A stretch of 64,000 nucleotides of DNA from positions 5,536,001-5,600,000 of the forward strand of contig CBDCJH010000002.1 in assembly GCA_965217775.1 (NCBI GenBank), in the 5' to 3' direction. Both the position numbers and the translations under genes were made by a program. The DNA comes from Acidobacteriota bacterium. Lineage in GTDB: Bacteria > Acidobacteriota > UBA6911 > RPQK01 > JAJDTT01. Positions 8,840 to 39,494 of the stretch are shown here, in pieces. The notes under the pieces are model-generated. The model made no database searches, was not told the DNA's origin, and saw only the letters and a program-made list of their open reading frames with translations. Every line of letters starts with the position of its first letter. Positions within the stretch are counted from its first letter, which is position 1.

Positions 8840-8843
<4 letters not shown>
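7230..8843 (+). CDS. Putative secreted five-bladed beta-propeller glycoside hydrolase-like protein (GH32/43/130-like); start uncertain (7194/7230/7248)
   Basis: RFRMWYY, YAESEDGIRWIKP, RYKMVY, TATSRDGLTW, SNDGIHF repeats; hydrophobic N-terminus with possible lipobox. Confidence 0.6.
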
Positions 8844-11716
<2,873 letters not shown>

Positions 11717-11737
11717 GGGAGTCTGACGACTGAGCCG

Positions 11738-13222: not shown

Positions 13223-13291
13223 AGAGATTCCGATTCGAGCTATCCGTCTTTGTTGACAAGAAGTCGAAGCGATGACCCTGGGAGGTTAAGA

Positions 13292-14734: not shown

Positions 14735-14756
14735 TCAAGCCTGGGGGAAAACAAGT

Positions 14757-15503: not shown

Positions 15504-15506
15504 GGG

Positions 15507-15661
15507 GGAGCGGCGGCTTCCTAGCCGCCGGGAGGGGCGGTTTCCTAGCCGCCCACAGGAACGGCGGTTTCCAACCGCCGATCTCCAGAGTGACATTTTG
15601 GTGTCGAAGAATGGGCGACTGGAAATCGCCCCTCCAATGGGGGACTGGAAATCGCCCCTCC
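15507..15661. repeat. BIME-like cluster of five GGAG-foot REP palindromes between convergent genes
   Basis: Plus strand: GGAGCGGCGGCTTCCTAGCCGCCG, GGAGGGGCGGTTTCCTAGCCGCCC, GGAACGGCGGTTTCCAACCGCCG. Minus strand: two copies of GGAGGGGCGATTTCCAGTC(G/C)CCC. Confidence 0.8.
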
Positions 15662-16788: not shown

Positions 16789-16832
16789 GGTCTCAACCTA
16801 GTCAGTGTTTGAGGACGGGATATGGCGGAGAA

Positions 16833-19800: not shown

Positions 19801-20429
19801 CTCCGTTCCGCCCGGGGAGCTGGCTCCAGCCCATTCTTCTCCAGTTGGGCGAGGATGTGGCGGTCCATGGGGAGATCCGACCAGCCCTCGTTCTCGACCT
19901 GAGGCAGCGGCGGTTGAACCACCGGTTGGAGACTCCACCAGTGGCTCCGCTCCTCGAAGACTTCTTCCCATGAATCGTCCGCCACATACGCGGTTTTGGC
20001 TGCGGGGGGCGCGCCGCGCGGGTCGGGCGCTCCCAGCAGGATCCATTGTTCGAAGTCGTCGATAGCCTCGGACGAGAGTTGAGCTTCCCCCAGGGGCATC
20101 GGGGTTCGAGAGCCATCGTGCCGGATGGCTCGAATCAGGGGACTCTGGTCCGGATCGCCCGGCACCAACGCCGGTCCCGACTGGCCGCCTTCCTGCCATC
20201 CGCCCCGATAATCGAGACGCAGGCCCCCCATGGCCTGGATTTCGCTGTGACAACTCTGACAGTTGTCGACCAGGACGGGACGGATTCGCTTCTCGAAGAA
20301 CTCCAGCTCATCCGGGCTGATTGTCTTCTCGACACTTTCCGCCGTCCCTCCGAGCGCCCAAGCGCAGACCACCGTCAGGGCGGCAACTCGCAAGAAGTGT
20401 TTCGGCATCCCTACTGCGAAGCTATTCAT
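16833..20429 (-). CDS. PSD1 / planctomycete cytochrome c protein (PSCyt1 + DUF1549 + DUF1553); start uncertain
   Basis: FFEKRIRPVLVDNCQSCH; FGERWARHWMDVVRY; CARCHDHK; RVFVNRVWQWVFG; HPQLLD. Confidence 0.9.
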   Translation of the reverse strand: MNSFAVGMPKHFLRVAALTVVCAWALGGTAESVEKTISPDELEFFEKRIRPVLVDNCQSCHSEIQAMGGLRLDYRGGWQEGGQSGPALVPGDPDQSPLIRAIRHDGSRTPMPLGEAQLSSEAIDDFEQWILLGAPDPRGAPPAAKTAYVADDSWEEVFEERSHWWSLQPVVQPPLPQVENEGWSDLPMDRHILAQLEKNGLEPAPRAERSTLVRRLSLVLTGLPPTAEQVEAFVSDPDEGAYEHLVESLLESPHFGERWARHWMDVVRYSDTYGYEWDIPAKGAWRFRDYLIRAFNDDLPFDRLIREQIAGDMLEPPRINADQQINESLIGPMFYMMGEKRHGDSVIFNGIHQEMVDDKIDAFSKAFQAMTVACARCHDHKLDAVAQKDYYALAGVLMSSRWGTNTLDLPDRNRQVIEGLSTLKKRMRRPLADWWLEASHDIPAYILAAQARIDGDEAAGQLAQGLKPERLQAWEKALRFEPVEEPAESEEKAEEAEEREAAEKKSEEEEAEDKPALKDILYPWLQLHASAKQLGSVDSRWSELAQEYGTAHQERSQTNARNFPLLADFREELPEGWSVDGVGLRDGPVSNGDFTVALEGTEAVDMLLPAGLFTHAISPRLNGALRSPFLDPTSPRVVSLEVNGGDLSTRRLVVDNGFLTEREWGYMDNDELHWVCHTQNAADKSAWPKSAVEAAETRNYLEFTTKTSNPYFPPRYGLGGCKDEEIKKDDCGSHDPKSWFGITRAYLVTKGKVTNYGAIFDCVESPADELSRFEPLFSGDPPSSLTDAATRYGRWLTASLEDWSNDRADEDDVLLINWMLHRKLLPNSLEDREPVRELVASYRMVEKRLLEPQTINGMVDLDPGRDYRVNIRGVYEDLGDLVPRGHVRVLRAADNGRPEGSGRLELANLVASPKNPLTGRVFVNRVWQWVFGTGIVSTPNDFGHLGDQPTHPQLLDYLADDFVRNGWSVKHLVRTLVMSETFRQSGQASAQAVEADPSNRLWHHMPLRRLDAESIRDSLLAVSGRLDRSLFGEPINPFRKMEDATKRLFSGPLDGDGRRSIYLKMTVMEPSKLLATFNQPKPKIPTGRRDVTNVPAQALALLNNPFVAGQAEFWAQELVAAPHESPRERLAYMFKRAFNRNPEAQELTRWSEAVNDIAALHEREAASEAARSPVMHSAQVWKDTAHALFNAPEFIYVR

Positions 20430-20469
20430 GGTCGAGGCAGCCCTCCAAGTCACGAGCAACCGTGCCGCT

Positions 20470-21468
20470 TCAGAATACCGCGATTGGATTCATGGGAGAA
20501 CCCGTCCCTCCCTCCACCGGAATGGGGGCCGTGGTCAGGAGAAACTCCCAGCGTTGACGCTCTTCCGCGGCTTGGCTCAACGCCTCCAGGTCGCAACTGT
20601 CGAAGATGTGAACTCCCATCGCGATCAGGACCACCTGGTGGATCGGATGGGTGATCCCTTCCACCAGGGAAGGATGGACGTCGCTGGCGGCTTCACTTCC
20701 CAGCATCGCCACGTCCCGGTCCTTCAGCCATTTGGCGCAGGAGGCGTGGAGGCCGGACGAGGCCTTCGTCACGTCCCAGGGGCCCAGGGCCGCTCGCCGC
20801 GCCCAGCGGCCGGTCCGAATGAACACCACGTCCCCACTCGAAACCTTGAATCCCGCCTTCTTTTCCCAAGCCTCCAGGTCTTCGGGAAAGATGGGAGTCC
20901 CGGGTTCCAAGTAGGGCACTCCCTTCAGTCTCGGTATGTCGAACAGGACCCCGCGGGTGAAGATGCCGTTCTTGAGCTTGTGGATGTCGAGCTGTTGGGC
21001 GCCTTCCGCGGTGACCTCCTCTTGGGCGTAACCGTTGTACATCTTGCCCCGGTAGAACATGTGACAGAGGGCGTCCAGATGGGTATGCGCGTAACCGTGG
21101 AAAGAGACCGAGAGCGTATCGACGGCGTACTGGGCATTCTCGTCGAGTCCGGTCATGGTCATGACGTGCTCATAGGGAGAGGCATTGTCGATGGACTTCT
21201 CCGTGGTCGCATCGCGCGACAGGGACACGGTGAAGCCATCCTTGACCAGCGCGGCGGCCTGCCTCCGCTTTTCCGGAGTAATCAGGTTGAGGGCGCCCAA
21301 CTGATCGTCCGGGCCCCAGCGACCCCAGTTGGAAAGCTCCTCCATCCAGCGATCGACGTCTTCGCTGGTCAGGGGATATCGCGGTTGGGCTTGAGGCTCC
21401 GGAGCAAGGCAGTGGATCAGGACGGGAAGCAATAGCCCCGCAATAAGCAAGACTCGAATCGTCGGCAC
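20470..21468 (-). CDS. Cyclase family (kynurenine-formamidase-like) metal hydrolase, secreted
   Basis: SNWGRWGPDDQLGALN, HGYAHTHLDALCH, GDVVFIRTG, GTGSPMNP; GTG start at 21468 gives a signal peptide. Confidence 0.85.
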   Translation of the reverse strand: MPTIRVLLIAGLLLPVLIHCLAPEPQAQPRYPLTSEDVDRWMEELSNWGRWGPDDQLGALNLITPEKRRQAAALVKDGFTVSLSRDATTEKSIDNASPYEHVMTMTGLDENAQYAVDTLSVSFHGYAHTHLDALCHMFYRGKMYNGYAQEEVTAEGAQQLDIHKLKNGIFTRGVLFDIPRLKGVPYLEPGTPIFPEDLEAWEKKAGFKVSSGDVVFIRTGRWARRAALGPWDVTKASSGLHASCAKWLKDRDVAMLGSEAASDVHPSLVEGITHPIHQVVLIAMGVHIFDSCDLEALSQAAEERQRWEFLLTTAPIPVEGGTGSPMNPIAVF

Positions 21469-21538
21469 GGTGTTCCCCCTGGACTCGGAATCAGATGATG
21501 GACACATTATTACTTCCCCGACCGTCCGGTTCAAACCA

Positions 21539-21617
21539 GGAGGGGGGACATCCTTTTCCCCCATTGGGAAGGGGGACATCCGTGTCCCCCGAATCGGGGG
21601 TTAAAAACCCCCGCTCC
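21539..21617 (-). repeat. ~79-bp composite REP unit (copy 1)
   Basis: Three GGGGG..CCCCC hairpins with GGAG feet; near-identical to 23950-24027 in inverted orientation. Confidence 0.8.
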
Positions 21618-21636
21618 TATTCCATAGCGCTACGGT

Positions 21637-22689
21637 CTACGCCAGCGTATTCGTCCACCCAATCAGAAACATGGAAGCGGACAAAACCAGAATGGAGACC
21701 CCCATCACCGCCATGGACTGCCGTGACGCGCCCGTCCACTCGCCGCTCAACGCCCCCCATACGGTGGCGGCGATGATTGACATGGCGGAAGCCATGGGCC
21801 AGCCGATGACTTCGCGAAGGTCGCCCAGCATGGAACCTCCGATGCCGTAGGTGACGACCCCGCAGATCCACAAGATTCCCATGGCCGCGCCCACGCCGTA
21901 GTGAAATGGCTGCCTCCGGAAAATGTGCCAGCTCCTCCCCTTGACGATCAGGTAGACACAGTAGCCGGCGTTCACCAGGAAACCCGCGGACAAGGCCACG
22001 ACCCAGATGACGTTCGAAGCCATCGAGGGCGAAGTGCCGAGCAGGACGGCCTGATCGGCGAGCTTGATCCCATAGGCAAAGCTCAGGTTCAGCATGGGCG
22101 AGAGTATTCCCGAAAGGGCGGCCACGAGGAGCCCCAAGAGCAGCGGCGCCGCCCTCGTGATTTTCTTCGCCGCCGTCTCGGATCCCTCCGCAGGATCCTG
22201 GAGTCGTCCAGGCGATTCCTCTCTCAACTTCCCCGCCCAGGCGGAGAGCAGGACTCCAACGACGACCAGCAGGACTCCGGCGCAGATCACCATGCCCTTG
22301 ACCGTCAGGAAATCGTCCCAATGGAGCAGAACGAATGGCGCCATGGTGCCGACCGCCGCGGTCAGGCCCATGACGATGGCGTAGCTCAGGGCCAGGCCGA
22401 CCATCTTCAGCGCCAGTCCGTAGAGGACGGACCCCACTCCCCAACCCATGCCGAACAGGAAGACCAGAAGCAGGTCGCGGGTTTCGGCCGCCGCCAGGAC
22501 GGCAAACAGAGACTCGATAGTGAGGAACCCGAGGAGCCAGGGAATCAAGATCATTGCAGTCACGGAGAAGAGAAGCCAGATATGCTCCCATTTCCAACTG
22601 CGCGTGAACTTGAGTCCCAGTCCAAAGGCGGAATTCGCAGTAGAACCCGTCAGGATCACGAGAATGCCGAGGCCGAAACCGGTTTCCAT
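21637..22689 (-). CDS. L-rhamnose/proton symporter RhaT-family sugar transporter
   Basis: KFTRSWKWEHIWL, FGMGWGVGSVLYGL, GLALSYAIVMGL..AVG, IGWP, WG.LSGEW.GA; about 10 TM segments. Confidence 0.8.
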   Translation of the reverse strand: METGFGLGILVILTGSTANSAFGLGLKFTRSWKWEHIWLLFSVTAMILIPWLLGFLTIESLFAVLAAAETRDLLLVFLFGMGWGVGSVLYGLALKMVGLALSYAIVMGLTAAVGTMAPFVLLHWDDFLTVKGMVICAGVLLVVVGVLLSAWAGKLREESPGRLQDPAEGSETAAKKITRAAPLLLGLLVAALSGILSPMLNLSFAYGIKLADQAVLLGTSPSMASNVIWVVALSAGFLVNAGYCVYLIVKGRSWHIFRRQPFHYGVGAAMGILWICGVVTYGIGGSMLGDLREVIGWPMASAMSIIAATVWGALSGEWTGASRQSMAVMGVSILVLSASMFLIGWTNTLA

Positions 22690-22811
22690 AGGTAAATCTC
22701 CCGGTCAGAAACTACCTATTCCAGATCACAATTTGAAGGGGCGGGATGGTGGACAATCCAGCCGCCGTTGCCGGATCATGGATGGTCCGGTCGGGTTTGA
22801 ATGGAGGTGAC

Positions 22812-23966
22812 ATGGAGACCATCAAGTTGCCGAAGCTGGCCATCACCATGGAAGAAGGGACCGTCGTGCGATGGCTCAAGCAGGAAGGCGACCCCATCGC
22901 CAAGGGTGAACCCGTGGTCGAGATCGAGACCGAGAAGGCCAATGCCGAGATCGAATCCAACTGCGCCGGCTACCTCAAGAGAATCGCCGTCAAGGAAGGT
23001 GAAGCTGCACCGGTGGAAGTCGTGCTGGCCTATATCGCCAACAACGAAGCGGAATTGAAGGCCCCCTTCGAAGCCGCCGTCCGCGAGCTGAAGCCAAAGG
23101 CCCAGGTAGTTTCCACGAAACCGTCACCCAGGGCCGCGCACCGAACCCCGCAGCGTCCCGCAGCCGGACCGAAAGGCCCGGTGCGCGCCGCTCCGGCGGC
23201 CCGCCGGTTGGCCCGGGAACTGGGCCTGGATCTCGCCTCCATCCCGGGGACCGGTCCCGGGGGACGCATCCTGCCGGCGGACGTTCGCCGGGCGCAGGCC
23301 GCTGCCGCCGAACCGCCGAAAGACCCACTCGATAAACGAAAGCCGATCATTGCCACCCTGACCAAGTCCATCCAGTCGATTCCCCACATCCACATCTCCA
23401 GGGAGCTGCCTGCGGATGGGTTGATCGCCCTGAAGCAACGCACCCGCGACATCACCTACACGGAGATCCTGTTCAAGGCACTGGCGCTGGCGGTCGAGGA
23501 ATTTCCCGCGTTCAAGACTTCACTGGTGGAAGACCGGCTCTTCCAGCCGGAGAAGACCAGGGTGGGGTTCGTCGTCGACGTGGAGGACGCCCTGGTTATC
23601 CCGACCATCGAAGACCCGGCCAACAAGTCGATCCAGGACTTGGCTGCCGAGGTTCGCGGTCTGATCCGCCGGGTCCGGCATGGGACCCTCGATCACGCCG
23701 ACGTGACCGGCGCCACGGTGAGCCTGAGCAATCTTGGAATGCACGAAGTCGACCTCTTCACGGCCGTCATCCCTTACGGCCAAGTCGCCGTGCTCACCAC
23801 CGGCCGCATCCGATATCAGCCAACGATCCAAGAAGGATCGCTCGTGGAAGTCCCGCGGCTCTGGGCGAACCTGACCGTGGACCATCGCCTGATCGACGGC
23901 GTCGCCGCCGCGAAGTTTCTGAAGACGCTGGCCAACCTGCTCCGGGATGGGAGCGTGGGTTTGTAA
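22812..23966 (+). CDS. 2-oxoacid dehydrogenase E2 (dihydrolipoamide acyltransferase)
   Basis: Lipoyl domain IETEKAN; PSBD AAPAARRLARELGLDL..GTGPGGRI; catalytic DHRLIDG; RBS GGAGGT. Confidence 0.9.
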   Translation: METIKLPKLAITMEEGTVVRWLKQEGDPIAKGEPVVEIETEKANAEIESNCAGYLKRIAVKEGEAAPVEVVLAYIANNEAELKAPFEAAVRELKPKAQVVSTKPSPRAAHRTPQRPAAGPKGPVRAAPAARRLARELGLDLASIPGTGPGGRILPADVRRAQAAAAEPPKDPLDKRKPIIATLTKSIQSIPHIHISRELPADGLIALKQRTRDITYTEILFKALALAVEEFPAFKTSLVEDRLFQPEKTRVGFVVDVEDALVIPTIEDPANKSIQDLAAEVRGLIRRVRHGTLDHADVTGATVSLSNLGMHEVDLFTAVIPYGQVAVLTTGRIRYQPTIQEGSLVEVPRLWANLTVDHRLIDGVAAAKFLKTLANLLRDGSVGL

Positions 23967-24027
23967 CCTCGAATTGGGGGACAGGGATGTCCCCCTTCCC
24001 AATGGGGGACAAGGATGTCCCCCCTCC
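23950..24027 (+). repeat. ~79-bp composite REP unit (copy 2), overlapping the E2 stop codon
   Basis: GGAGCGTGGGTTTGTAACCTCGAATTGGGGGACAGGGATGTCCCCCTTCCCAATGGGGGACAAGGATGTCCCCCCTCC; inverted match to 21539-21617. Confidence 0.8.
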
Positions 24028-24094
24028 ATGTCCCCCTCTCGTATCCTTTACGCCAACTTGGGACGCAAGCTAGAATGACCCGACCTCTGGTCCC

Positions 24095-25300
24095 ATGAGA
24101 CTTTACGAGTTCGAGTCGAAGCAGCTTCTGGCCCGGAGTGGGATCAGGGTTCCCCGATCTCAACTGATCACTTCAGCCTCTTCTTTTTCCCTGTCTGAAG
24201 ACCTCCTGCCCGGAATCGTCAAAGTCCAGACCTTGAGCGGAAAGCGGGCCCTGCGGGGCGGAGTTAAGCCGGTCGACGATGTCGACGCCGTCAGAGACTT
24301 TGCCAAACGATTCCTGAAGCAGGGATTCGGGGACGAACCGGTCAATCGCATTCTCCTGGAAGAACGGATCGACTTCGCAGCGGAATACTTCCTAGGCATC
24401 ACCTACGACAGCCGTGCCAGGAAACCCCTTCTGCTCTTCTCCCGCCATGGCGGCGCGAATATCGAAGAGACCGCCCGGTCGAGTCCGGACCTGGTCAAGA
24501 CCCAGTTGCTACCGCCCGGCGGAGACGTTCGCACCTACCACGCCGTCGAATGGCTTTCCGAGTGGGGTTTTTCCGCAAAGCTGCTGCTGCGTCTGGCGGG
24601 CCTGGTTCGCAAGATGGCCCGCTTGTTTCACCGCTACGACGCTCTGCTCCTGGAGTTCAACCCCCTGGCGAGCACGGCTGCACAGGATCTGGTGGTCCTG
24701 GACTGCCATCTGGACATCGACGACGATGCGCTGAAGCGCCAGTCGCTGGACTTCGAGGGGCTGTCGAACCGGATGGAGGGCGCGCGCCAGCCAACCGAAT
24801 TCGAGCAGCAAGCCCGCGAGATCGACCAACTCGATTACCGCGGCGTCGCCGGCCGGATGATCGAGTTCGAGGGCAATCTGGGACTGCTCATCGGAGGTGG
24901 AGGCGCCAGCCTCACCGCCTTCGACGCGGTGCGAAACTCGGGAGGGACCCCCGCCAACTACTGTGAGATCGGTGGCAACCCGACGGTCAAAAAGGTGCAG
25001 GAATTGACGAAACTTCTGGTCAGCCGGCCGGCCGTCGAAAAGCTGGCCGTGATCATGAACGTGGTCAGCAACACCCGGTCGGACCTGGTGGCCCGGGGTG
25101 TGATCAAGGGGATGGTCGAGGCGGGCAGAGACCCGGAGCAGACAATTGCCGTGTTTCGTCTCCCCGGCGCCGGCGAAGAAGAGTGCAGGAAGATACTCAA
25201 GCACTACGGCATCCCCTTTTGCGGACGGGAAGTGTCCATTGACGAGGCCGCCGCCCTGGCGGTCGCGCGGGCCGGGAACACGGCGGATCAACGCGTCTGA
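24095..25300 (+). CDS. ADP-forming acyl-CoA synthetase beta subunit (SucC/ATP-citrate-lyase-like ATP-grasp)
   Basis: MRLYEFESKQLL, ILLEE, EYFLGI, LEFNPL; ligase loop GGGGAS and PANYCEIGGNP differ from canonical SucC. Confidence 0.85.
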   Translation: MRLYEFESKQLLARSGIRVPRSQLITSASSFSLSEDLLPGIVKVQTLSGKRALRGGVKPVDDVDAVRDFAKRFLKQGFGDEPVNRILLEERIDFAAEYFLGITYDSRARKPLLLFSRHGGANIEETARSSPDLVKTQLLPPGGDVRTYHAVEWLSEWGFSAKLLLRLAGLVRKMARLFHRYDALLLEFNPLASTAAQDLVVLDCHLDIDDDALKRQSLDFEGLSNRMEGARQPTEFEQQAREIDQLDYRGVAGRMIEFEGNLGLLIGGGGASLTAFDAVRNSGGTPANYCEIGGNPTVKKVQELTKLLVSRPAVEKLAVIMNVVSNTRSDLVARGVIKGMVEAGRDPEQTIAVFRLPGAGEEECRKILKHYGIPFCGREVSIDEAAALAVARAGNTADQRV

Positions 25301-26211
25301 TGGGAATACTGATCGATCGGAGCACCACGATTCTGGTTCAGGGGATCACCGGGCGTGAAGCCAGTTTCTTCACGCGCGAATCTCTCGATTACGGGGCCCG
25401 GGTCGTGGCCGGAGTGACTCCCGGAAAGGGAGGCCAGGAGGTCTATGGAATCCCCGTCTATGATTGTGTGAAGAACGCCCTTCGCAACCACCGGATCGAC
25501 GCCGGCGTGGTCTCGGTCCCTCCCTTCGCGGTCCGGGACGCTGCCCTGGAAGCCGTCGAAAACGGAATTCCCTTGCTGGTCATCATGACGGAGCGCGTCC
25601 CGCGGCGGGACGTTGCCGCCCTGTTGCACTTTGCTCGAGAGAACGGCACCCGTGTCATCGGTCCCAACAGCTTGGGCCTCATCTCTCCCGGCGAGTCCAA
25701 ACTGGGAGCCGTGGGCGGCAATGTCGAAAACACGCTGCGAACCTTTACCCAGGGACCCGTGGGAGTCATGTCGCGCAGCGGCGGGATGACGAGTGAATTC
25801 GCCAATCTCCTGGGCCAGGAAGGGCTCGGCCAGTCCACTTGCGTCAGCGTCGGAGGGGATCCCCTGATCGGCTCTACTTTTCAGGACCTGTTCCCGTTGT
25901 TCGAGGAAGACAAGCAGACCCGGGCGGTCGCCCTCTTCTGCGAACCCGGCGGGATCATGGAGGAGGAGTTCGCCCGATTCTATGCTGCCCGGACCGATCC
26001 GAAACCGGTGGTGGCCTTCATCGCGGGGAGATTCGCCGACCGGATGCCGGGCACCCGATTCGGCCATGCTGCCGTGATCGTCGAGGGAGACCGCGGCAGC
26101 ACCAGGAAAAAGAGAGCGCTCATGAAGAAAGCCGGGGTCCACGTGGCCGAACGGCTGTCGGATGTCCCGAAAATCATAAGGGGGCTGCTGAGCCATGGGC
26201 ATGTTCATTGA
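25300..26211 (+). CDS. ADP-forming acyl-CoA synthetase alpha subunit (SucD-like)
   Basis: VQGITG, GVTPGKGG, IGPNSLG, SRSGGM, VGGDP, phospho-His FGHAA; translationally coupled to the beta subunit. Confidence 0.88.
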   Translation: MGILIDRSTTILVQGITGREASFFTRESLDYGARVVAGVTPGKGGQEVYGIPVYDCVKNALRNHRIDAGVVSVPPFAVRDAALEAVENGIPLLVIMTERVPRRDVAALLHFARENGTRVIGPNSLGLISPGESKLGAVGGNVENTLRTFTQGPVGVMSRSGGMTSEFANLLGQEGLGQSTCVSVGGDPLIGSTFQDLFPLFEEDKQTRAVALFCEPGGIMEEEFARFYAARTDPKPVVAFIAGRFADRMPGTRFGHAAVIVEGDRGSTRKKRALMKKAGVHVAERLSDVPKIIRGLLSHGHVH

Positions 26212-26419
26212 GGTCGCGGTTCGGGACCCGGGCTTTCTCAAGACCGGGGAATCCCGCAAGCTGCTGGCGGCCTGCGCCGTGAACATTTTCGAGCCGGCGG
26301 AGGAAGGAGTCGCCGTCAATCGCGATCAGGAAGACGAATGCACGCTGTGCGGCCGCTGCCTCGAGATTGCAGGCGACCGTTTGGAGATCGTGAAGCTCTA
26401 CGAGAAGGCTGAACTATAG
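26195..26419 (+). CDS. Small ferredoxin-like protein (probably one 4Fe-4S cluster)
   Basis: 74 aa; ECTLCGRC plus distal C in ACAVNIF; overlaps the upstream stop. Confidence 0.75.
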   Translation: MGMFIEVAVRDPGFLKTGESRKLLAACAVNIFEPAEEGVAVNRDQEDECTLCGRCLEIAGDRLEIVKLYEKAEL

Positions 26420-26468
26420 ACGGGATCTAGGCTTTCTCCCTGCGGAGAGGTAGGGGAGAGGAAAGAGC

Positions 26469-27446
26469 ATGCGAGAGATCACCTACTCACAGGCCATCAA
26501 CGAAGCGATTCGGGAAGAAATGCGCCGCGACTCCGACATCGTCCTGCTGGGCCAGGACATCGGTGTGTACGGTGGGACCTTCGGGGTCTACCGGGGACTT
26601 TGCGAGGAGTTCGGTGAGGACCGCGTCCGTGACGGGCCGCTTTCGGAGGCGGCCACTGCGGGCTTCGGGATCGGTCTCGCCGTGGCCGGCATGCGGGCGA
26701 TCGTGGAGATCGAGTTCATGGACTTCTCGCCGCTGATCCTGGACGCGGTGGCCAATCAGGCCTCCAAGATGCGCTATTTCTTCGGGGGCAAGGTCAAGGT
26801 CCCCCTGGTGCTGCGGATGCCCAGCGCCAGCAAGCTGGGACTGGGCGCCCAGCATTCCCAGAGCCTCGAGGCGTGGTTCATGCACACTCCGGGTCTGCTC
26901 ATCGCGATGCCGGCGACCCCCTACGACGCCAAAGGACTGCTGAAGACCGCCATTCGCCAGGACAATCCGGTCATCTTCATCGAACATGTCCGGCTCTACG
27001 CCACCAAGGGAGAGGTGCCCGAGGAGGAGTACCGCCTGCCCTTCGGCAGCGCCCGGATCGTTCGCGAGGGTACGGACATCACCGTCGTGGCCATCGCCAT
27101 GATGGTCCAAGAGGCGGTTCAAGCCGCCAACGAGTTGGAGAAGGAGGGGATCAGCGTCGAGATCATCGATCCCCGCACCCTGGCTCCCCTGGATGGCGAG
27201 ACCATCGTCGAGTCGGTGAAGAAGACCGGCCGCCTGCTGGTGACCCACGAGGCCTACCGGACCGCCGGGGTCGGGGCCGAGATCGGGCAGGTCGCCCTGG
27301 AGGGTGCCTTCGACTACCTGATCGCCCCCATCCGCCGCGTCGCCGGCAAGGACCAGCCGATCCCCAGCGGACCGTTGCAGGACGAGGTCTTTCCGGACCG
27401 CAACAAGTTGGCCGCGGCCATCAGAGATCTCATGGAGGAGGGATAG
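26469..27446 (+). CDS. 2-oxoacid/acetoin dehydrogenase E1 beta subunit
   Basis: GQDIGVYGG, FGEDRVRDGPLSE, EIEFMDF, AQHSQ, EIIDPRTLAPLD. Confidence 0.92.
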   Translation: MREITYSQAINEAIREEMRRDSDIVLLGQDIGVYGGTFGVYRGLCEEFGEDRVRDGPLSEAATAGFGIGLAVAGMRAIVEIEFMDFSPLILDAVANQASKMRYFFGGKVKVPLVLRMPSASKLGLGAQHSQSLEAWFMHTPGLLIAMPATPYDAKGLLKTAIRQDNPVIFIEHVRLYATKGEVPEEEYRLPFGSARIVREGTDITVVAIAMMVQEAVQAANELEKEGISVEIIDPRTLAPLDGETIVESVKKTGRLLVTHEAYRTAGVGAEIGQVALEGAFDYLIAPIRRVAGKDQPIPSGPLQDEVFPDRNKLAAAIRDLMEEG

Positions 27447-27451
27447 GAGTC

Positions 27452-28435
27452 ATGACAGAGCAGGCCCAAAGCGCCGCGACCGTCAGCTCGGACCAGGCTC
27501 TGGCCTGGTACCGCCAGATGGTCCACATCCGGAAGTTCGAGGAGAAGGTGGTGGAACTCTCCGGCAGGGGACTGGTCAGCGGTTCCACCCACCCCTGCAT
27601 CGCCCAGGAGGCGGTCTCCGTGGGCTGCATCTCCGCCTTGAGCGCAGAGGATATGGTGCTGGCCACCTACCGTGGCCATGGCGCGTTTATCGCCCGGGGC
27701 GGAGACCCTAAGGCCGCAATGGCCGAGATCCTCTGCCGGGAGACCGGTTGCTGCAAGGGCAAAGGGGGGTCCATGCACCTGTGCGACCCCGACATCGGCT
27801 TCCTGGGAACCAACGCCATCGTGGCGGCTCATATCCCCATTGCCTCGGGTGTGGCCCTGGCCAACCAGTTGAAGAAGACCAATCGGGTGACCCTCTGCCT
27901 TTTCGGCGACGGGGCCTCGTGTGAGGGTGCCTTCTACGAGACCTTGAACATGGTCGCCCTCTGGAAGATTCCCGTGGTGCTGGTCTGCGAGAATAACGGC
28001 TACGCGATTTCGGTCCCGACAAAGAAATCGTTGAGCGTTGCCGAGATCGCCACCCGGGCTCAAGGTTTCGACATGCCCGGAATTTCCATCGACGGGAACG
28101 ACATTGCGGAAGTCTACGAAACCACGAAGCAGGCGGTGGAACGGGCGCGCGACGGTGGGGGGCCGACCCTGATCGAATGCAGGACCGTCCGCTGGGAACG
28201 CCACAGCGCCCTCTCGGCCGGATTCTACGAATCGCGGGAAGAGAGAAAACGCTGGCAGGTCGTGGATCCTATCCCGAGGTTTCGCACTGTCCTCACCGAG
28301 GAGATGTCCATCCCGGCATCGGTACTGGAAGGGATCGAGCAGGAGGCAGCCGAGGCCGCCGATGAAGCCGCGGATTTCGCCATCCGGAGCCCCTTTACGG
28401 GCACGGCGCAGCTCGAACAAGATATCTTTGCTTGA
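27452..28435 (+). CDS. 2-oxoacid/acetoin dehydrogenase E1 alpha subunit (TPP-dependent)
   Basis: True start ATG 27452 (AGGAG RBS); GKGGSMH; TPP motif GDGA..(x)..ENN; GGGPTLIE; RHS. Confidence 0.92.
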   Translation: MTEQAQSAATVSSDQALAWYRQMVHIRKFEEKVVELSGRGLVSGSTHPCIAQEAVSVGCISALSAEDMVLATYRGHGAFIARGGDPKAAMAEILCRETGCCKGKGGSMHLCDPDIGFLGTNAIVAAHIPIASGVALANQLKKTNRVTLCLFGDGASCEGAFYETLNMVALWKIPVVLVCENNGYAISVPTKKSLSVAEIATRAQGFDMPGISIDGNDIAEVYETTKQAVERARDGGGPTLIECRTVRWERHSALSAGFYESREERKRWQVVDPIPRFRTVLTEEMSIPASVLEGIEQEAAEAADEAADFAIRSPFTGTAQLEQDIFA

Positions 28436-28441
28436 TCGCCG

Positions 28442-28500
28442 GGAGGGGCGATTTCCAGTCGCCCTCCCCTCGGAGGAACGGGGCAAGAATGCCCCACTCC
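28442..28500. repeat. Pair of inverted GGAG-foot REP palindromes
   Basis: Plus GGAGGGGCGATTTCCAGTCGCCC; minus GGAGTGGGGCATTCTTGCCCC. Confidence 0.7.
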
Positions 28501-28536
28501 CAATGGGTTGTTTCTGAGTCAGAAGGAGAACCCGAA

Positions 28537-29598
28537 ATGAGTCCCCAGGAATCCTCCGGTCCGAGAGTGATTCTCTGCGGTGTCGGAGGCGTCGGTCGCA
28601 GAGTGACCCGTCTGTTGAGCGTCCGTCCCGGCTACCGGGTCGTGGCGGCCTACACCAGGAACCGGGACTTGGCTGGTCAGGACCTGGGTAGTTTGGCCGG
28701 TATCGAACCCAACGGGATCATCGTCACCACCGACCGGGACGCCGCCCTGCGGCAACCCGCCGACATCGTGATCGTCGCCACCACCTCATTCCTGAGAGCG
28801 GTGGCGCCCGAACTGCGAGCGGCGGTGGAACACAACCTCAACGCCATCACCACGGCCGAGGAGGCGGCCTTCCCCTGGCTGACCGACGAGGCACTCACCG
28901 ATGAACTGGATCAACTGGCGCAGGACCGGGGGGTCTCGCTCCTGGGGGTGGGACTGAACCCCGGCTTCATTTTCGACGCGCTGCTGTTGACGGCCACCGG
29001 ACCGGCCTGGGATGCACGCAGGATTCGGATCAGGCGGGTCGTGGACGTCTCGCGGTTCAGCGCCACCATCCAGCGGCGGTTGGGCATCGGTTTCTCCAGG
29101 GAGAGGTTCGAGGCGGGGGTCCGAGCCGGAACCATCTTCGGCCACATCGGCTTTCCTCAATCCTTTCATCTGGCCGCAAAATGTCTGGGCCGGACGCTGG
29201 ACGACTACAGGAAGTCGTTCGAGCCGGTGATCGCCGAGCGCCCCTTTTCCAATGACTTTCTTACGGTCCAGCCGGGCCAGACCGTGGCCTTCATTCAGCG
29301 GGACGAGGGGGTCATCGGCGGAAAACCCTGGATCGATTCCGAGTTCGTCGCTTTCATTGATCCGTCCGCCGGAGATTTCGTCGCGCAGGACTCGATTTCG
29401 ATCCAGGGATACAACCCACTGAATCTGACCATCAGGCCGGGCTGCCAGCCGCAACTGGGGTCGGCGGCCATGGTGGCCAATTCCATCCCCAAGGTGATTG
29501 CGGCGAAACCCGGCTTCCGGACCGTGGCGGATCTGCCGCCCCTCTGCCCGCCGCCGACGGACAGCGACCGGTTGGCGGAAGCCGCCCGGAACTGGTGA
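28537..29598 (+). CDS. NAD(P)-dependent amine dehydrogenase family (2,4-diaminopentanoate dehydrogenase/DapB_N-like)
   Basis: GVGGVG Rossmann; ITTAEEAAFPW; GVGLNPGFIFD; GHIGFPQS; NSIPKVIAAKPG..T..DLP; RBS AAGGAG. Confidence 0.8.
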   Translation: MSPQESSGPRVILCGVGGVGRRVTRLLSVRPGYRVVAAYTRNRDLAGQDLGSLAGIEPNGIIVTTDRDAALRQPADIVIVATTSFLRAVAPELRAAVEHNLNAITTAEEAAFPWLTDEALTDELDQLAQDRGVSLLGVGLNPGFIFDALLLTATGPAWDARRIRIRRVVDVSRFSATIQRRLGIGFSRERFEAGVRAGTIFGHIGFPQSFHLAAKCLGRTLDDYRKSFEPVIAERPFSNDFLTVQPGQTVAFIQRDEGVIGGKPWIDSEFVAFIDPSAGDFVAQDSISIQGYNPLNLTIRPGCQPQLGSAAMVANSIPKVIAAKPGFRTVADLPPLCPPPTDSDRLAEAARNW

Positions 29599-29621
29599 TC
29601 CAGGGAGTTCGTCCAGCGACC

Positions 29622-30764
29622 ATGGACAAAATACGAACGATACAAGTCATTCCCCTCATCAGACGGTTGGACCAGGTCTTCAGCGGAAGCACCTACCAGA
29701 TCGTTTCGCGGAATACGATCTACGCCCGGATCGAGACGGAAGGTGGGATCGTCGGCGAGGCCTTCGGAGGGGACGAGGACATCCACCAGGAGAAGGTGGT
29801 CCGGATCGCCAATGAAAGTCTGGCGCCCCGCCTGATCGGCAATGAGATCTGGCCGGTGGAGCCGCTCTGGCGCAAGATGTTCACCACCCCCGATCTGCCG
29901 CTGCACAACCGCGGCATCCACGCCTTGGACATGATCAACCACGCCATCCTGATGCAGGCCATCGCCATCATCGACATGGCGATCTGGGACGCCGTCGGCA
30001 AGTCCTTCGGCAAACCTTTGTGGCAGTTGCTGGGCGGGTTTAGAAGCCGAGTCCCCGTCGTCGGGATCGGCGGTTATTATAAGCCGGGTGCGTTGGAGGA
30101 GTTGGGCGAGGAGATCCAACTCTGCATCGATCTCGGCCTGGCGGGAATCAAACTGAAGGTCGGGAAAGCCTCGGTCGACGAGGACATCCGCCGAGTGGAA
30201 TACATTCGGAAGCACTTTGCCGACACCTTCGTGCTCGCCTGTGACGCGAACCAGGCCTGGACCTACGAACAGGCTCTCCGGTTCGCTCAAGGTGTCGCGG
30301 ACCTGAACCTGGAGTGGCTGGAGGAACCCGTCCGCTGGTACGACCAGTTGGAGGGGTTGAAGCGGTTGAGGAGCTCGACCGCCATTCCCCTGGTCGCCGG
30401 GCAAGGGGAGATCTCCAAATGGGGGTGCCGCGACCTCATCCTGGGCGGTTGCGTCGACACGCTCAACGTCGACGCCACCATCGCCGCCGGCATCACCGAG
30501 TGGATGAGGATCGCCTCCTTCGCCGAAACCATGGACGTCAACATGGGCCACCATGAGGAGCCCCAGGTTGCGCTGCATATGTTGGGAGCCATCCCCAACT
30601 CCACCTATGTCGAGATCTTCCATCAGCGGGAACGGGACCCCATGTGGTACGAATTGGTGGCTGATCTGCCCCGCATCTCCGGTGGCTTCATGTATCCCAA
30701 CGACGCCCCCGGACTGGGCTGGCACTACAATGCCGAGGTCATCGATCGATACGGCCAGCCGTGA
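29622..30764 (+). CDS. Mandelate racemase/muconate lactonizing enzyme family (putative acid-sugar dehydratase/racemase)
   Basis: IDMAIWDAVGK, KLKVG, DANQAW, WLEEP, GQGE, PGLG. Confidence 0.88.
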   Translation: MDKIRTIQVIPLIRRLDQVFSGSTYQIVSRNTIYARIETEGGIVGEAFGGDEDIHQEKVVRIANESLAPRLIGNEIWPVEPLWRKMFTTPDLPLHNRGIHALDMINHAILMQAIAIIDMAIWDAVGKSFGKPLWQLLGGFRSRVPVVGIGGYYKPGALEELGEEIQLCIDLGLAGIKLKVGKASVDEDIRRVEYIRKHFADTFVLACDANQAWTYEQALRFAQGVADLNLEWLEEPVRWYDQLEGLKRLRSSTAIPLVAGQGEISKWGCRDLILGGCVDTLNVDATIAAGITEWMRIASFAETMDVNMGHHEEPQVALHMLGAIPNSTYVEIFHQRERDPMWYELVADLPRISGGFMYPNDAPGLGWHYNAEVIDRYGQP

Positions 30765-30830
30765 CCGGCATTTGTCGCCGCCCCGACCGGTCACCTGCTC
30801 GTTGGCTCGAAGAGCATCCCGATCTCGTCT

Positions 30831-31592
30831 ATGACTGAGGAGCAATTCCACGGGATATTGGTCTGGACGATCTTCCTGACCGCCGTTGTGAGCTTCGCGA
30901 GCCTATTGGTTCTGGCTGCTCCCTACGGCCGGCACTACTCCGGGAAGGGCTGGGGACCGCACATTTCCAACCGGACCAGTTGGGTCCTCATGGAGCTTCC
31001 GTCGGTGGTTCTCTTCCTGTTCGTTTATTTCGCTGGAGCAGCCGTATTCCAGACTGTTCCGCTGGTCCTTCTCGGAGTCTGGCAGTGCCACTATCTCAAC
31101 CGGACGTTCGTCTATCCTCTGCGAACTCGAACCGCAGGCGAGAAAATGCCTCTCGTGGTAATGGCTTGCGGCTTCACTTTCAACTCGATCAACGCCTACG
31201 TCAACGCCCGTTTCATCTCCGAATTCGGTGAGTATGGGTCGGAATGGCTGGCCGACCCGCGATTCCCGGCCGGTCTCGCCATCTTTCTGGCCGGTCTGGC
31301 CCTGAACGTCCACTCTGACAACATCCTTTTGAACCTGCGAAAAACCGGGGAGTCCGGGTATGCGATTCCTCAGGGCGGCGCCTTCCGTTACGTCTCGTGC
31401 CCGAACTACCTCGGGGAAATAATGGAATGGGCGGGCTGGGCGCTGGCGACATGGTCGCCGGCTGGACTGGCCTTCTTCGTATACACCGCGGCAAACCTGA
31501 TCCCGAGAGCGCGCAGCCACCATCAGTGGTACCGGGCGCGGTTTCCTGACTATCCCGCCAACCGAAAATCCCTGATTCCGGGCCTGATCTGA
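30831..31592 (+). CDS. 3-oxo-5-alpha-steroid 4-dehydrogenase (steroid 5-alpha-reductase family)
   Basis: APYGRH, WVLMELPS, HYLNRTFVYP, NVHSDNILLNLRK, GGAFRYVSCPNYLGEIMEWAGWA, NLIPRARSHHQWY. Confidence 0.9.
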   Translation: MTEEQFHGILVWTIFLTAVVSFASLLVLAAPYGRHYSGKGWGPHISNRTSWVLMELPSVVLFLFVYFAGAAVFQTVPLVLLGVWQCHYLNRTFVYPLRTRTAGEKMPLVVMACGFTFNSINAYVNARFISEFGEYGSEWLADPRFPAGLAIFLAGLALNVHSDNILLNLRKTGESGYAIPQGGAFRYVSCPNYLGEIMEWAGWALATWSPAGLAFFVYTAANLIPRARSHHQWYRARFPDYPANRKSLIPGLI

Positions 31593-31619
31593 CCGTCGCC
31601 AGCACGACTCGAAAAAAGA

Positions 31620-31672
31620 TTGACAGCGGCCACAAGAACTCTGTATTGTAGAGTAACTCTGTATTACAGAGT
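31620..31672 (+). promoter_or_regulatory. Sigma70-type promoter with two tandem palindromic operators
   Basis: TTGACA (31620-25), 18 bp, TATTGT; 18-bp tandem units AACTCTGTATTGTAGAGT and AACTCTGTATTACAGAGT overlap the -10. Confidence 0.7.
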
Positions 31673-31703
31673 AGTATGGTGACCCTGTACTGAGGAGGAA
31701 TCC

Positions 31704-32273
31704 ATGACCGACAACACGCAACTCAAGGAAGACATCGCATATGTTCGCGCCGTCGCCGAACGATCGAGGACGAAGCCTGTACGTCCAATTTATCTTCTGT
31801 GGGCGATGATCGGACTATGTGGATTCGTGCTGGTCGACTTCGTCGACGACAAGAAGTGGATTAGCATCTACTGGCTCTTCGCTGCACCGATCGGATTCGC
31901 GCTGTCGTTCTGGCTCGGTTTCCGGGCGGGTCGCAACCAGGGCGCCACCAGTCGAGAGACGGGAATTCGCCACAGTCTTCACTGGCTGGCGTTCATGACT
32001 GCTGGCGTGCTTGGTCTGGCGCTGGTCCATGCAGGACAGTTGACGTGGCAAGGATTCGGATCCCTGTGGGTTCTGCTTCTGGCGTTGACCTATTTTCAAC
32101 TCGGGCTGCACTTGGAGCGGCGATTGTTGCCTATCGGAGTTCTGATGGGGGCCGGGTATCTGGTCACGGTCTGGGTGCCGAAATTCGGCTGGACCGCCAC
32201 CGGAGTCGTGCTTGCCATCGCGCTCGTGACCGGAGCCTATCTCGGAGCACCGAAGAGTGAAACCGCCGGCTGA
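31704..32273 (+). CDS. Hypothetical membrane protein (~6 TM)
   Basis: RBS GAGGAGG; LKEDIAYVRAV N-terminal helix then hydrophobic segments; coupled to the downstream regulator. Confidence 0.75.
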   Translation: MTDNTQLKEDIAYVRAVAERSRTKPVRPIYLLWAMIGLCGFVLVDFVDDKKWISIYWLFAAPIGFALSFWLGFRAGRNQGATSRETGIRHSLHWLAFMTAGVLGLALVHAGQLTWQGFGSLWVLLLALTYFQLGLHLERRLLPIGVLMGAGYLVTVWVPKFGWTATGVVLAIALVTGAYLGAPKSETAG

Positions 32274-32586
32274 TCCCGATCTGCCCGCACTGGATGAGCT
32301 GGAAGTGCTCAGCGGGCTCCTCGAGCATCGCGTGCGGCTGGCGATTTGCGTCCTGCTCTCCAAGTATGACGCCATGTCGTTCACTCGCCTCAAGCAGGTG
32401 CTCGGCGAGACGGACGGGAGTCTCGGCGCTCATCTCCGCAAGCTGGAGAATTCCGGCTATCTGGACGTGGAGAAGGCCTACCGCAACCGGAGACCGGTCA
32501 CCTGGTACCGGCTCAGCACCGTCGGGCGGACCAACCTGAAACGGCACCTTGCCGTCCTGACCCAACTGATCGATCGAGCGGAATAG
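32257..32586 (+). CDS. Winged-helix transcriptional regulator (HTH_34/ArsR-MarR-like)
   Basis: HRVRLAICVLL..MSFTRLK..TDGSLGAHLRKLENSGYL..K..RRPVTWYRLS..GR. Confidence 0.85.
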   Translation: MKPPADPDLPALDELEVLSGLLEHRVRLAICVLLSKYDAMSFTRLKQVLGETDGSLGAHLRKLENSGYLDVEKAYRNRRPVTWYRLSTVGRTNLKRHLAVLTQLIDRAE

Positions 32587-32600
32587 CCGCGGCTGACCTC

Positions 32601-33119
32601 TCATGCCGGGTCAGACGACCCCCTCAAAGACTCGATTCGTTTGGAGATCTCGTGTTGAGGGAGGAAGACCGTGTTGTCGCTCTGCCAGGCCCGCAGGGCC
32701 TCGATCAGCAGGGATGTCGCGCAGGCTCCGGCAACGGCCAACTCGTCAATGACCCAAAGCACGCCGTGGACGTGAAGCCCTTTATCCGTAGCGACTCTGC
32801 GTAGCAGAACATCGCCCGTCAGCAAGATCCCCCGGTTAGCGAGTGCGGTAACAAGACAGAAACAGTCGTTTGCGGACAGGGCGCGGTGCTGCTCCCTGAG
32901 AGCGAAGGCACGCTCGACCTTGGCGGCTGTCAGGTCGTGTGTGATCAAGCCGTGGTCGTCGAGGTGCTTCCATTGCCGGTCGGAGAAGTCGAGGACTTCC
33001 GACGCGCGTACGGTCAGCGGAACCACGAGTCGGTACGGCAGGTTGGAAAGGACTTCCAGCAACCCCCCTTTGCGGAGGTCGATCAGGCACGAAGCGTCAT
33101 TGACAAGTACACGCGTCAC
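32601..33119 (-). CDS. PIN-domain (VapC-like) nuclease
   Basis: VLVNDASCLIDL, LSANDCFCL, LLTGD..LR; overlaps the upstream XRE-peptidase stop. Confidence 0.82.
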   Translation of the reverse strand: MTRVLVNDASCLIDLRKGGLLEVLSNLPYRLVVPLTVRASEVLDFSDRQWKHLDDHGLITHDLTAAKVERAFALREQHRALSANDCFCLVTALANRGILLTGDVLLRRVATDKGLHVHGVLWVIDELAVAGACATSLLIEALRAWQSDNTVFLPQHEISKRIESLRGSSDPA

Positions 33120-39304: not shown

Positions 39305-39494
39305 CGCTTTTAGCAATAGGTTAACAGCGGACCGAAACTCAGACGAACTCAGACGCCGAGGCGACCCATTGTCGGTGTGGCCTCCGGAGGTCGACGCTAC
39401 CAGTTGGGTTTGCGGAACACTTAATCTCAGGGTTTCTACACTACGTGGCCCTGCAGAGGTTCTCACACTCCCGGTGGTGGGTCGCCGTAAATAG

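Follow-up and report, generated by a model that had tools for sequence, protein, structure and literature searches.

A conserved pairing of an MR/MLE dehydratase with a dedicated lipoyl complex suggests an undescribed branch of sugar breakdown in Acidobacteriota and other bacteria

The 64,000-nt stretch of an Acidobacteriota genome analyzed here (contig CBDCJH010000002.1, positions 5,536,001 to 5,600,000; hereafter the window; ~62% G+C) carries a gene cluster in which an enolase-superfamily enzyme of the MR/MLE family is encoded together with the E1 and E2 components of a 2-oxoacid dehydrogenase complex, an ADP-forming CoA ligase and a sugar importer. The genes can be identified from their domains, the catalytic motifs of their products are in place, and the MR/MLE enzyme shows conserved coupling both to a dedicated E1 clade and to genes of rhamnose use. 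Numerous uncultured bacteria have this pairing of dehydratase and complex next to their rhamnose-use genes, and it seems to represent a branch of sugar catabolism that has not been described. We propose, with a probability of roughly 0.45, that the cluster (14757–30764) is one catabolic system by which a neutral sugar would be converted via a dedicated lipoyl complex to a 3-hydroxyacyl-CoA and then yield ATP. Gene content makes L-rhamnose, or else a 6-deoxyhexose related to it, the likeliest substrate.

The order of steps that we infer begins with a RhaT-family sugar:proton symporter (21637–22689, minus strand; Pfam RhaT 87.7 bits), divergent from a plus-strand operon, which would bring in the sugar. 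A short-chain dehydrogenase/reductase (SDR) of 248 aa, a candidate sugar 1-dehydrogenase (14757–15503, plus strand; NCBIfam glucose 1-dehydrogenase subfamily, 222.6 against a cut-off of 215), would oxidize it via the lactone to the aldonic acid, and the MR/MLE enzyme, of the MR type (29595–30764, plus strand; likely start ATG 29622; Pfam MR_MLE_N and MR_MLE_C), would dehydrate this to a 2-keto-3-deoxy acid. No aldolase would cleave this 2-oxoacid; it would be oxidatively decarboxylated by an E1 of the alpha/beta type (E1beta, 26469–27446, Pfam Transket_pyr and Transketolase_C; thiamine diphosphate (TPP)-binding E1alpha, 27452–28435, Pfam E1_dh, read from an ATG start; both plus strand), a dihydrolipoyl acyltransferase, E2 (22746–23966, plus strand; likely start ATG 22812; Pfam lipoyl, E3-binding and catalytic domains), and an E3 from elsewhere in the genome. 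The products would be NADH and a 2-deoxy (3-hydroxy) acyl-CoA, in the case of a 6-deoxyhexose 3,4-dihydroxypentanoyl-CoA. An ADP-forming ligase resembling succinyl-CoA synthetase (SCS) and citryl-CoA synthetase (beta, 24095–25300, Pfam ATP-grasp_2 and Citrate_bind; alpha, 25300–26211, Pfam CoA_binding, Succ_CoA_lig and Ligase_CoA; both plus strand), together with a small, putatively one-cluster ferredoxin partner (74 aa, four Cys; 26195–26419, plus strand, with a 17-nt overlap with the ligA stop), would turn the thioester into ATP. An Ord-like protein of the native amine dehydrogenase family (28432–29598, plus strand; likely start ATG 28537; Pfam DAP_DH_C and DapB_N) would then act upon the C5 acid. 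The same CoA ester might pass, in other lineages, to a family III CoA-transferase together with a MaoC hydratase and a CitE-like lyase.

The coupling of dehydratase and complex was followed in 80 metagenome loci, the best 80 of 425 confirmed relatives of the MR/MLE enzyme (41–71% identity). The family is large (1403 proteins at E ≤1e-60 among the candidates scored), and the records of its members include Anaerolineae, Chloroflexi, Acidobacteriia and Terriglobia. E1 is found in 44 of the 80 loci, E2 in 31 and RhaT in 7. When only the 22 long loci are counted, with ≥5 kb on each side of the MR/MLE homolog and E1 scored within 6 kb, E1beta/E1alpha are present in 20, E2 in 13, ligase beta in 7, ligase alpha, ferredoxin and RhaT in 4 each, and Ord in 1. 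The MR/MLE homologs that adjoin E1beta/E1alpha have 48–71% identity, and their loci show at least eight gene orders, with overlapping genes in some (L114). Given this gene coupling, the product of the MR/MLE enzyme would be the substrate of the dedicated complex.

At closer range, the whole arrangement is kept at 82–97% identity in the near-identical clusters L003, L004 and L025, and relatives at ~90% identity carry an Acidobacteriota label in their records. Among 401 Acidobacteriota genomes, close MR/MLE orthologs were present in the window genome and in 5/5 others of its genus but in 0/2 of the sister genus; one further genome gave a 40% match. The full eight-gene set is confined to one genus. 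The eight families had originally been put forward as a unit to be sought elsewhere, and of this unit the core of MR/MLE and E1, partly with E2, recurs (20/22 long loci), while the complete set does not leave the genus. A plasmid search with the MR/MLE protein gave 6 records at 37–45% identity. E1 genes were not present in the two plasmid contexts read (Roseovarius and Haladaptatus), so the MR/MLE family has other contexts at this level of identity; on the Roseovarius plasmid, the 45% homolog is followed by a ‘cyclase family protein’.

From E2 to the MR/MLE gene, all plus-strand genes run in one orientation and either overlap or are separated by no more than 128 nt. A first-pass annotation of the window had described nine genes between 21637 and 30764, and their positions and identities were borne out by the open reading frame listing and by Pfam and NCBIfam scans, in which none of the proteins reached an equivalog cut-off and E1beta alone passed a subfamily cut-off. 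What it had observed is thereby confirmed, and its interpretation is partly supported. Its genes stand, but the span was drawn too narrowly, as the SDR, a second MR/MLE enzyme (MR2, 375 aa; 15661–16788, minus strand; Pfam MR_MLE_N and MR_MLE_C) and perhaps a cyclase-family protein are conserved partners too. Orthologs of MR2 with 44–71% identity occur in 11/80 of the metagenome loci holding the main MR/MLE gene, and SDR orthologs of ~49% lie beside the module in L094, L102, L109 and L132, adjoining MR2 orthologs. With these two conserved partners the system reaches leftward to ~14757.

A distant acidobacterial genome, G401, retains much of the system in another order. In L005, the MR/MLE gene is divergent and followed by ligB, ligA, fdx, E1beta, E1alpha, an isomerase-like gene and RhaT. 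Another contig holds orthologs of E2 (52–56%), of MR2 (74%, beside the E2 ortholog) and of the SDR (65%, L083), and the E2 contig also carries genes for a ketol-acid reductoisomerase-like protein, a GFO-family protein, a 2-hydroxyacid dehydrogenase and a two-subunit fumarase-like enzyme. Ten window families are retained in this genome despite the rearrangement over two contigs. Since the arrangement is kept in L003, L004 and L025 and partly in L005, and its core recurs in the metagenomes, it exceeds chance. It would be extremely improbable that independent genes had come together accidentally or through shared regulation: the restriction of the full eight-gene order to one genus could be read in that way, as could a scan of 14000–33000 that gave no more promoter- and terminator-like sites than shuffled sequence (4 and 13 versus 2.5 and 12.9; not informative), but the core is kept over many gene orders and an inferred spread of phyla, and G401 keeps its ten families.

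The second line of evidence comes from E1. The window E1/E2 is one of five alpha/beta sets in the genome (there are four further E1beta/E2 sets), and it belongs to the 2-oxoacid dehydrogenase complexes with an alpha/beta E1 according to the GDG...NN motif for TPP binding at residues 152–182 of E1alpha, the transketolase-like E1beta and the three-part E2, which has DHRLIDG as its DHRxxDG motif at residue 379. An E3 is encoded outside the cluster at G000:C2:6109898 (TIGR01350, 491.5 bits against a cut-off of 408.8). A tree of E1beta with 46 rows groups 37 of the 41 sequences from MR/MLE loci with the window E1beta (support 100/96), and all four own-genome paralogs fall outside this clade. Another 2-oxoacid dehydrogenase set of the genome, at G000:C2:441097–443073 (L166:3097–5073), encodes E1alpha and E1beta as a fusion, in one frame of 658 aa.

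Pyruvate has to be considered as the substrate of this complex, as known non-phosphorylative rhamnose routes finish at pyruvate. An aldolase could split the sugar acid into pyruvate and an aldehyde, with E1/E2 as a pathway-linked pyruvate dehydrogenase (PDH) isoenzyme and the ligase turning acetyl-CoA into acetate and ATP. E1beta scores 352 with the NCBIfam PDH E1beta subfamily (cut-off 321), E1alpha comes near the cut-off of TIGR03182 (340.8 versus 393.85) and has human PDH E1alpha as its closest solved structure (190 bits), and DHDPS-family candidate aldolases are found in L127 and L141. The E1beta score does not discriminate, because two own-genome paralogs pass the same cut-off too (341.8 and 332.5). 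The window cluster contains no aldolase gene, the E1 clade tracks one MR/MLE family across many gene orders, and the ligase is far from acetate-CoA ligases (AcCoA-syn-alpha, 83 versus a cut-off of 567). We therefore consider a PDH isoenzyme rather unlikely.

E2 stays below the cut-off of all NCBIfam E2 equivalogs (206 versus 445 for pyruvate dehydrogenase E2). Its presumed lipoyl Lys stands in the context E-T-E-K-A, which differs from D-K-A, the context that we take to be customary. In L127, L141 and L149, the full E2 is replaced by a protein with only lipoyl and E3-binding domains. These proteins (154–171 aa; L127:9540–10004, L141:9495–10010 and L149:2418–2909) are encoded directly upstream of MR/MLE-E1beta-E1alpha, which suggests that the lipoyl carrier here lacks a CoA-transfer step of its own.

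Such an unusual complex could be of the acetoin type, and alpha/beta E1 enzymes do include acetoin-cleaving members. An SDR, GFO or Ord-like enzyme would here form a methyl ketol by oxidizing the 6-deoxy acid at C5, and E1 would cleave this ketol to acetyl-lipoyl-E2, giving acetyl-CoA and an aldehyde. The absence of a catalytic domain in the three lipoyl/E3-binding proteins fits this, as does the recurrence of dehydrogenases within the operons. The sequences tested do not, however, separate E1 from 2-oxoacid-decarboxylating enzymes, and a 2-oxoacid product explains the tight coupling of MR/MLE and E1 more simply, so cleavage of a ketol is improbable.

The MR/MLE enzyme itself has the residues of an MR-type acid-sugar dehydratase of the enolase superfamily. 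K186-L-K188 and H319-H320 are present, and D217, E243 and E272 are invariant in 12/12 sequences; we assume that the KxK stands at the end of strand 2, that the three carboxylates are metal ligands and that His is the general base. Its best NCBIfam match is L-talarate/galactarate dehydratase (TalrD/GalrD; 172 versus a cut-off of 500), and it also stays below the cut-offs of the other named dehydratases (AraD 153/650, RhamD 83/393, GalD 109/311 and ManD 114/550, as score/cut-off). MR2 matches galactonate dehydratase best (159 versus 311), and 27 MR/MLE-like places were counted in the genome.

From the best match one might think of an aldarate: the MR/MLE enzyme would dehydrate a pentarate or hexarate, the complex would form a hydroxy-dicarboxylyl-CoA (malyl-CoA-like) from the resulting 2-keto-3-deoxy-aldarate, and the ligase would free the dicarboxylate with gain of ATP. 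The ligase belongs to the SCS/citryl-CoA-synthetase group and has relatives among dicarboxylate enzymes, and the accessory enzymes of related loci resemble succinate-glutarate and mesaconate CoA-transferases and the Ich and Ccl of the itaconate pathway. Genes like those of two-subunit class I fumarases, found in L087, L094 and L083, point the same way. Yet the TalrD/GalrD score is far under its cut-off, no uronate dehydrogenase was identified, and the sole transporter of the window cluster is of the RhaT family, known for neutral sugars. As rhamnosidase and rhaM neighbors indicate a 6-deoxyhexose, which is unable to form an aldarate, this alternative is unlikely.

The sugar context was read from Pfam annotation of 20 metagenome loci, with NCBIfam applied to selected proteins. 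GH106 alpha-L-rhamnosidase genes are found in 5/20 loci and rhaM in 1/20, besides AP_endonuc_2 (5/20), GFO/IDH/MocA (3/20) and two-subunit fumarase-like genes (2/20); SDRs are present in most. In L127 and L141, RhaT occurs together with a RhamD-like dehydratase (264–279 bits versus a cut-off of 393), and L141 has an Lra1-like SDR (233 bits versus 400). These rhamnose markers would make a 6-deoxyhexose the leading candidate substrate. The window symporter scores 220.8 with the NCBIfam RhaT equivalog and does not reach the cut-off of 369. The substrate had at first been taken for an imported sugar acid or amino-sugar acid; the neighbors indicate instead a neutral rhamnose-type sugar that would be oxidized inside the cell. 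A protein of 463–467 aa with weak matches to the L-arabinose isomerase C-terminal domain and to sulfoquinovose isomerase is encoded inside the module operon in L005 (14363–15766) and L102 (4946–6337) and may be a sugar isomerase.

The same loci show what may follow the complex. A CitE/RipC-like HpcH lyase is encoded in 9/20, a family III CoA-transferase (CoA_transf_3) in 8/20 and a RipB/Ich-like MaoC hydratase in 7/20, and the CoA-transferase and hydratase genes often sit between MR/MLE and E1beta in the same operon. A 3-hydroxyacyl-CoA would suit an (R)-hydratase and a CitE-like lyase, which could explain why CoA-ester enzymes accompany the module. The order dehydratase, 2-oxoacid dehydrogenase, CoA-ester enzyme, as first proposed, matches this conserved gene coupling. 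The downstream enzymes vary, being either an SCS/citryl-CoA-synthetase-like ligase with ferredoxin or the CoA-transferase, hydratase and lyase. Genes for a CoA-transferase or MaoC are missing from the window cluster, and orthologs of CoA_transf_3 and MaoC were not found in the window genome at E 1e-20, which leaves the ligase as the sole encoded user of the CoA ester; for HpcH, the genome has only a 39% homolog far from the cluster.

The ligase is not the enzyme of the tricarboxylic acid (TCA) cycle. A canonical SucCD is encoded elsewhere at G000:C2:4804870 (567.4 and 473.7 bits, above the cut-offs), and the window subunits remain below the SucC (217.7 versus 370) and SucD (287.8 versus 336) equivalogs, in agreement with the initial view that this is not a sucABCD operon. 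Ligase beta is 32% identical to the canonical SucC of the genome, and among PDB entries it matches E. coli SucC (151.8 bits) and the citryl-CoA synthetase CcsA (148 bits) nearly equally well. Ligase alpha has a GHAA motif at residue 255, presumably the catalytic phospho-histidine site of the SCS type, with His256 invariant in 18/18 aligned sequences. The ADP-forming ligase of the first-pass annotation is thus present and distinct from the TCA type, but it is a variable part of the module, found in 12/80 metagenome loci. Judged by their motifs, the components of the proposed route look functional, with the TPP motif in E1alpha, DHRxxDG in E2, His256 in the ligase, KxK and His in the MR/MLE enzyme and an E3 available.

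An alignment of ligase-beta relatives was used as anchor for another 80 loci, from genomes, which were probed by tblastn with the window proteins. Ligase alpha was found in 66/80 of them, and E1 genes adjoin the ligase in 4/80 (L003, L004, L025 and L005). The 74-aa protein gave no Pfam or NCBIfam match. It keeps four Cys, a number able to ligate one cluster, of which C27, C49, C52 and C55 are invariant, and the two CxxCxxCxxxCP motifs of 2x[4Fe-4S] ferredoxins are not present in it. Homologs were found in 55/80 of the ligB-anchored loci; 37 lie within 150 nt of the ligA end, and the other 18 lie 0.15–2.5 kb further, mostly behind a lyase gene. Because 17 homologs have 8–9 Cys in two ferredoxin motifs of the CxxCxxC type, the original naming as a ferredoxin is upheld by homology to relatives in other phyla. 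Most other homologs have four Cys; such forms come from Myxococcota, Dehalococcoidia and the window, and those with 8 Cys from loci recorded as Desulfobacterales or ‘delta proteobacterium’. No partner of this sort is known to us for SCS, nor any role of an Fe-S protein next to an ADP-forming CoA ligase, and the pairing of ligase and ferredoxin is a conserved, as yet unexplained feature in its own right. In L009, L040 and L014 (records of Desulfobacterium or a (delta)proteobacterium), the ligase stands with a CitE-like lyase, MmgE/PrpD, a two-subunit fumarase and succinate dehydrogenase, a set that looks like a C5-dicarboxylate pathway (itaconate or citramalate-type) with the ligase in place of a CoA-transferase.

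The Ord-like protein is encoded once in the genome, and its frame overlaps both the E1alpha and the MR/MLE genes. It matches PF19328 (DAP_DH_C) with 136 bits, has a GVGGVG motif, and its AEE at residues 142–144 aligns with the AEE of AmDH4, in keeping with membership of the native amine dehydrogenase family; 7xdu and AmDH4 (6g1h and 6g1m) are its closest PDB entries. With the ornith_Ord equivalog (2,4-diaminopentanoate dehydrogenase) it scores 271.5 versus a cut-off of 400. The first-pass annotation had given it a central step, in which it would deaminate an amino acid or amino-sugar acid to the 2-oxoacid for E1. The retained Glu and the overlaps with both neighboring genes agree with such a role, and in native amine dehydrogenases the P3 glutamate is the catalytic residue and large orphan groups exist without known physiological substrate or role (PMC11164908).

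According to the same source, however, family members oxidize an amine remote from the carboxylate, which gives a 4-oxo and not a 2-oxo acid (PMC11164908). The ornithine-fermentation genes (aminomutase and thiolase) are not among the Pfam matches of the window. Outside the window genus, an Ord-like gene is found near the module in just 2/80 metagenome loci (L085, 66%; L140, 51%), a GFO/IDH/MocA oxidoreductase occupies its position in L101, and the gp18-type cluster has no Ord-like gene. The amine dehydrogenase step accordingly falls outside the conserved core, and deamination to the E1 substrate is very improbable. The Ord-like dehydrogenase would rather be an occasional accessory of the module; the methyl-terminated C5 skeleton derived from a 6-deoxyhexose would resemble the known substrates of Ord and AmDH4.

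Several points weigh against the proposed conversion of a neutral sugar via the lipoyl complex. The PDH E1beta score leaves pyruvate as a candidate substrate, four MR/MLE-linked E1beta sequences (L100, L111, L115 and L119) fall outside the window clade, and 2/22 long loci (L087 and L113) have no E1. The window E2 is 30–37% identical to the E2s of the other loci, no nearer than to its own-genome paralogs. The nearest PDB entries of the MR/MLE enzyme (3msy, 4h83 and 3no1) are named just MR/MLE, with no function given, and a linear scheme leaves two MR/MLE enzymes per system unexplained. In L127 and L141, the neighbors of RhaT include a DHDPS-family protein and a RhamD-like dehydratase distinct from that of the module, so that rhamnose may there take a classical route while the module serves another compound. 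Other ligB-anchored loci pair the ligase with genes for CitE-like HpcH lyases, MmgE/PrpD, fumarase and succinate dehydrogenase, and such company points to dicarboxylate substrates and to a ligase that perhaps activates acids instead of forming ATP. Finally, a free 2-deoxy acid as end product requires additional steps.

A bolder version of the proposal would be a new 6-deoxyhexose route that works without an aldolase, forms 3,4-dihydroxypentanoyl-CoA on the lipoyl complex and makes ATP with a new three-part ligase of alpha, beta and an Fe-S ferredoxin subunit, a ligase widespread in several phyla; this we regard as doubtful. If the proposed scheme holds, 2-keto-3-deoxy sugar acids would have a fourth fate, in addition to aldol cleavage, loss of water to a semialdehyde and the diketo-hydrolase route, and it would yield NADH and a thioester convertible to ATP. 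The scheme would also give functions to orphan groups, namely a large MR/MLE family whose solved structures bear no functional name, a separate PDH-like E1 clade and a ligase-ferredoxin family, and possibly a role to a group of native amine dehydrogenases. The carriers are apparently mostly uncultured, with Acidobacteriota and Chloroflexota among the records, and the pathway could be relevant to how rhamnose-rich polysaccharides are turned over.

The combination had not been recognized as a characterized pathway, and our literature search agrees with this: in a full-text search, with subscription journals outside its scope, no publication was found in which an MR/MLE enzyme is linked with both a 2-oxoacid dehydrogenase complex and sugar acids or rhamnose. 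Passages of a preprint on SAR202 report that MR/MLE genes have expanded greatly and that rhamnose and fucose, as well as the corresponding acids, support growth; they do not mention a dehydrogenase complex (10.1101/2023.03.25.534242).

Known systems share parts of the proposed route. Among these, the non-phosphorylative (oxidative) L-rhamnose pathway consists of LRA1–LRA4 or LRA5/6. The cluster resembles it in the RhaT-type importer, the SDR and the enolase-superfamily dehydratase that would lead to a 2-keto-3-deoxy acid, and related loci have rhamnosidase and mutarotase neighbors. In contrast, the window lacks the aldolase (LRA4) and the diketo-hydrolase (LRA6), lipoyl E1/E2 stand in place of a C-C cleavage enzyme, and neither window MR/MLE protein attains the L-rhamnonate dehydratase cut-off. 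The pyruvate, branched-chain 2-oxoacid and acetoin dehydrogenase complexes likewise have a heterodimeric E1, the same subunit families and motifs and a shared E3 encoded elsewhere, but the window E1beta falls in a separate MR/MLE-linked clade and the E2 of some relatives is reduced to lipoyl and E3-binding domains.

The ligase has the ATP-grasp beta and CoA-binding alpha subunits with catalytic His of SCS, citryl-CoA synthetase and malate thiokinase, whereas it scores under all equivalog cut-offs and has a ferredoxin gene downstream in 55/80 related loci. Fermentative archaea couple 2-oxoacid oxidation to an ADP-forming acyl-CoA synthetase (ACD), and the sequence from 2-oxoacid via acyl-CoA to acid and ATP would be the same; here the ferredoxin oxidoreductase gives way to a lipoyl/NAD complex, and the ACD type to a ligase of the SCS type. 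The related loci with a CoA-transferase III, a RipB/Ich-like hydratase and a RipC/CitE-like lyase in the operon recall the itaconate trio Ict/Ich/Ccl (NCBIfam RipB and RipC), but their enzymes are below the equivalog cut-offs and all three are absent from the window.

Contigs from metatranscriptomes give a weak hint that relatives express the cluster genes; such contigs are no proof of a single transcript, and DNA is possible in such libraries. In run X17, a contig of 3071 letters covers 25924–28958, from ligase alpha to Ord, with ~230 letters differing, and in run X19 one of 1789 letters covers 25766–27551. Runs X18 and X20 gave near-matching pieces over parts of the RhaT, E1beta, E1alpha and Ord genes and of the PSD1 gene described below. 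Several bins of the stretch have no cover by contigs from the RNA libraries, and no inference was drawn from this. The pieces over 13000–32000 in X18 and X20, both labelled ‘sponge metagenome’, are nearly identical to the window, for example with 5 differences in 463 letters; such very few differing letters mean that a close relative of the organism was in those samples.

Two further minus-strand genes lie between MR2 and the symporter. The cyclase-family (PF04199) protein (20470–21579; Pfam 67 bits), perhaps a hydrolase or lactonase, stays with the cluster in L003 and L004 and has a 28% homolog in L087. A PSCyt1/PSCyt2/PSD1 protein of 1208 aa (16833–20459; identified by Pfam), whose membership is uncertain, is embedded in the minus-strand operon with the cyclase gene on one side and MR2 on the other. 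PSCyt1/PSCyt2/PSD1 and DUF1501 proteins are found near the module in three unrelated contexts (window 8840–13222 and 16833–20459, L085:12883–14343 and L146:5744–9849). A Steroid_dh gene (30831–31592) and orf189 were dropped as members, as only L003 and L004, both near-identical relatives, share their synteny.

At the edge of the system, a protein of ~490–510 aa with a weak N-terminal match to Ceramidase_alk is encoded in the window (13250–14734), in L128 (1563–3032) and in L132 (19407–20939). Farther along the window, at 32601–34195, a gene with HTH_3 and Peptidase_M78 domains (IrrE-like) adjoins one with a PIN domain, and another gene with an M78 domain is found at 38081–39466. The M78 genes and the PIN neighbor could possibly represent toxin-antitoxin or stress-regulator pairs.

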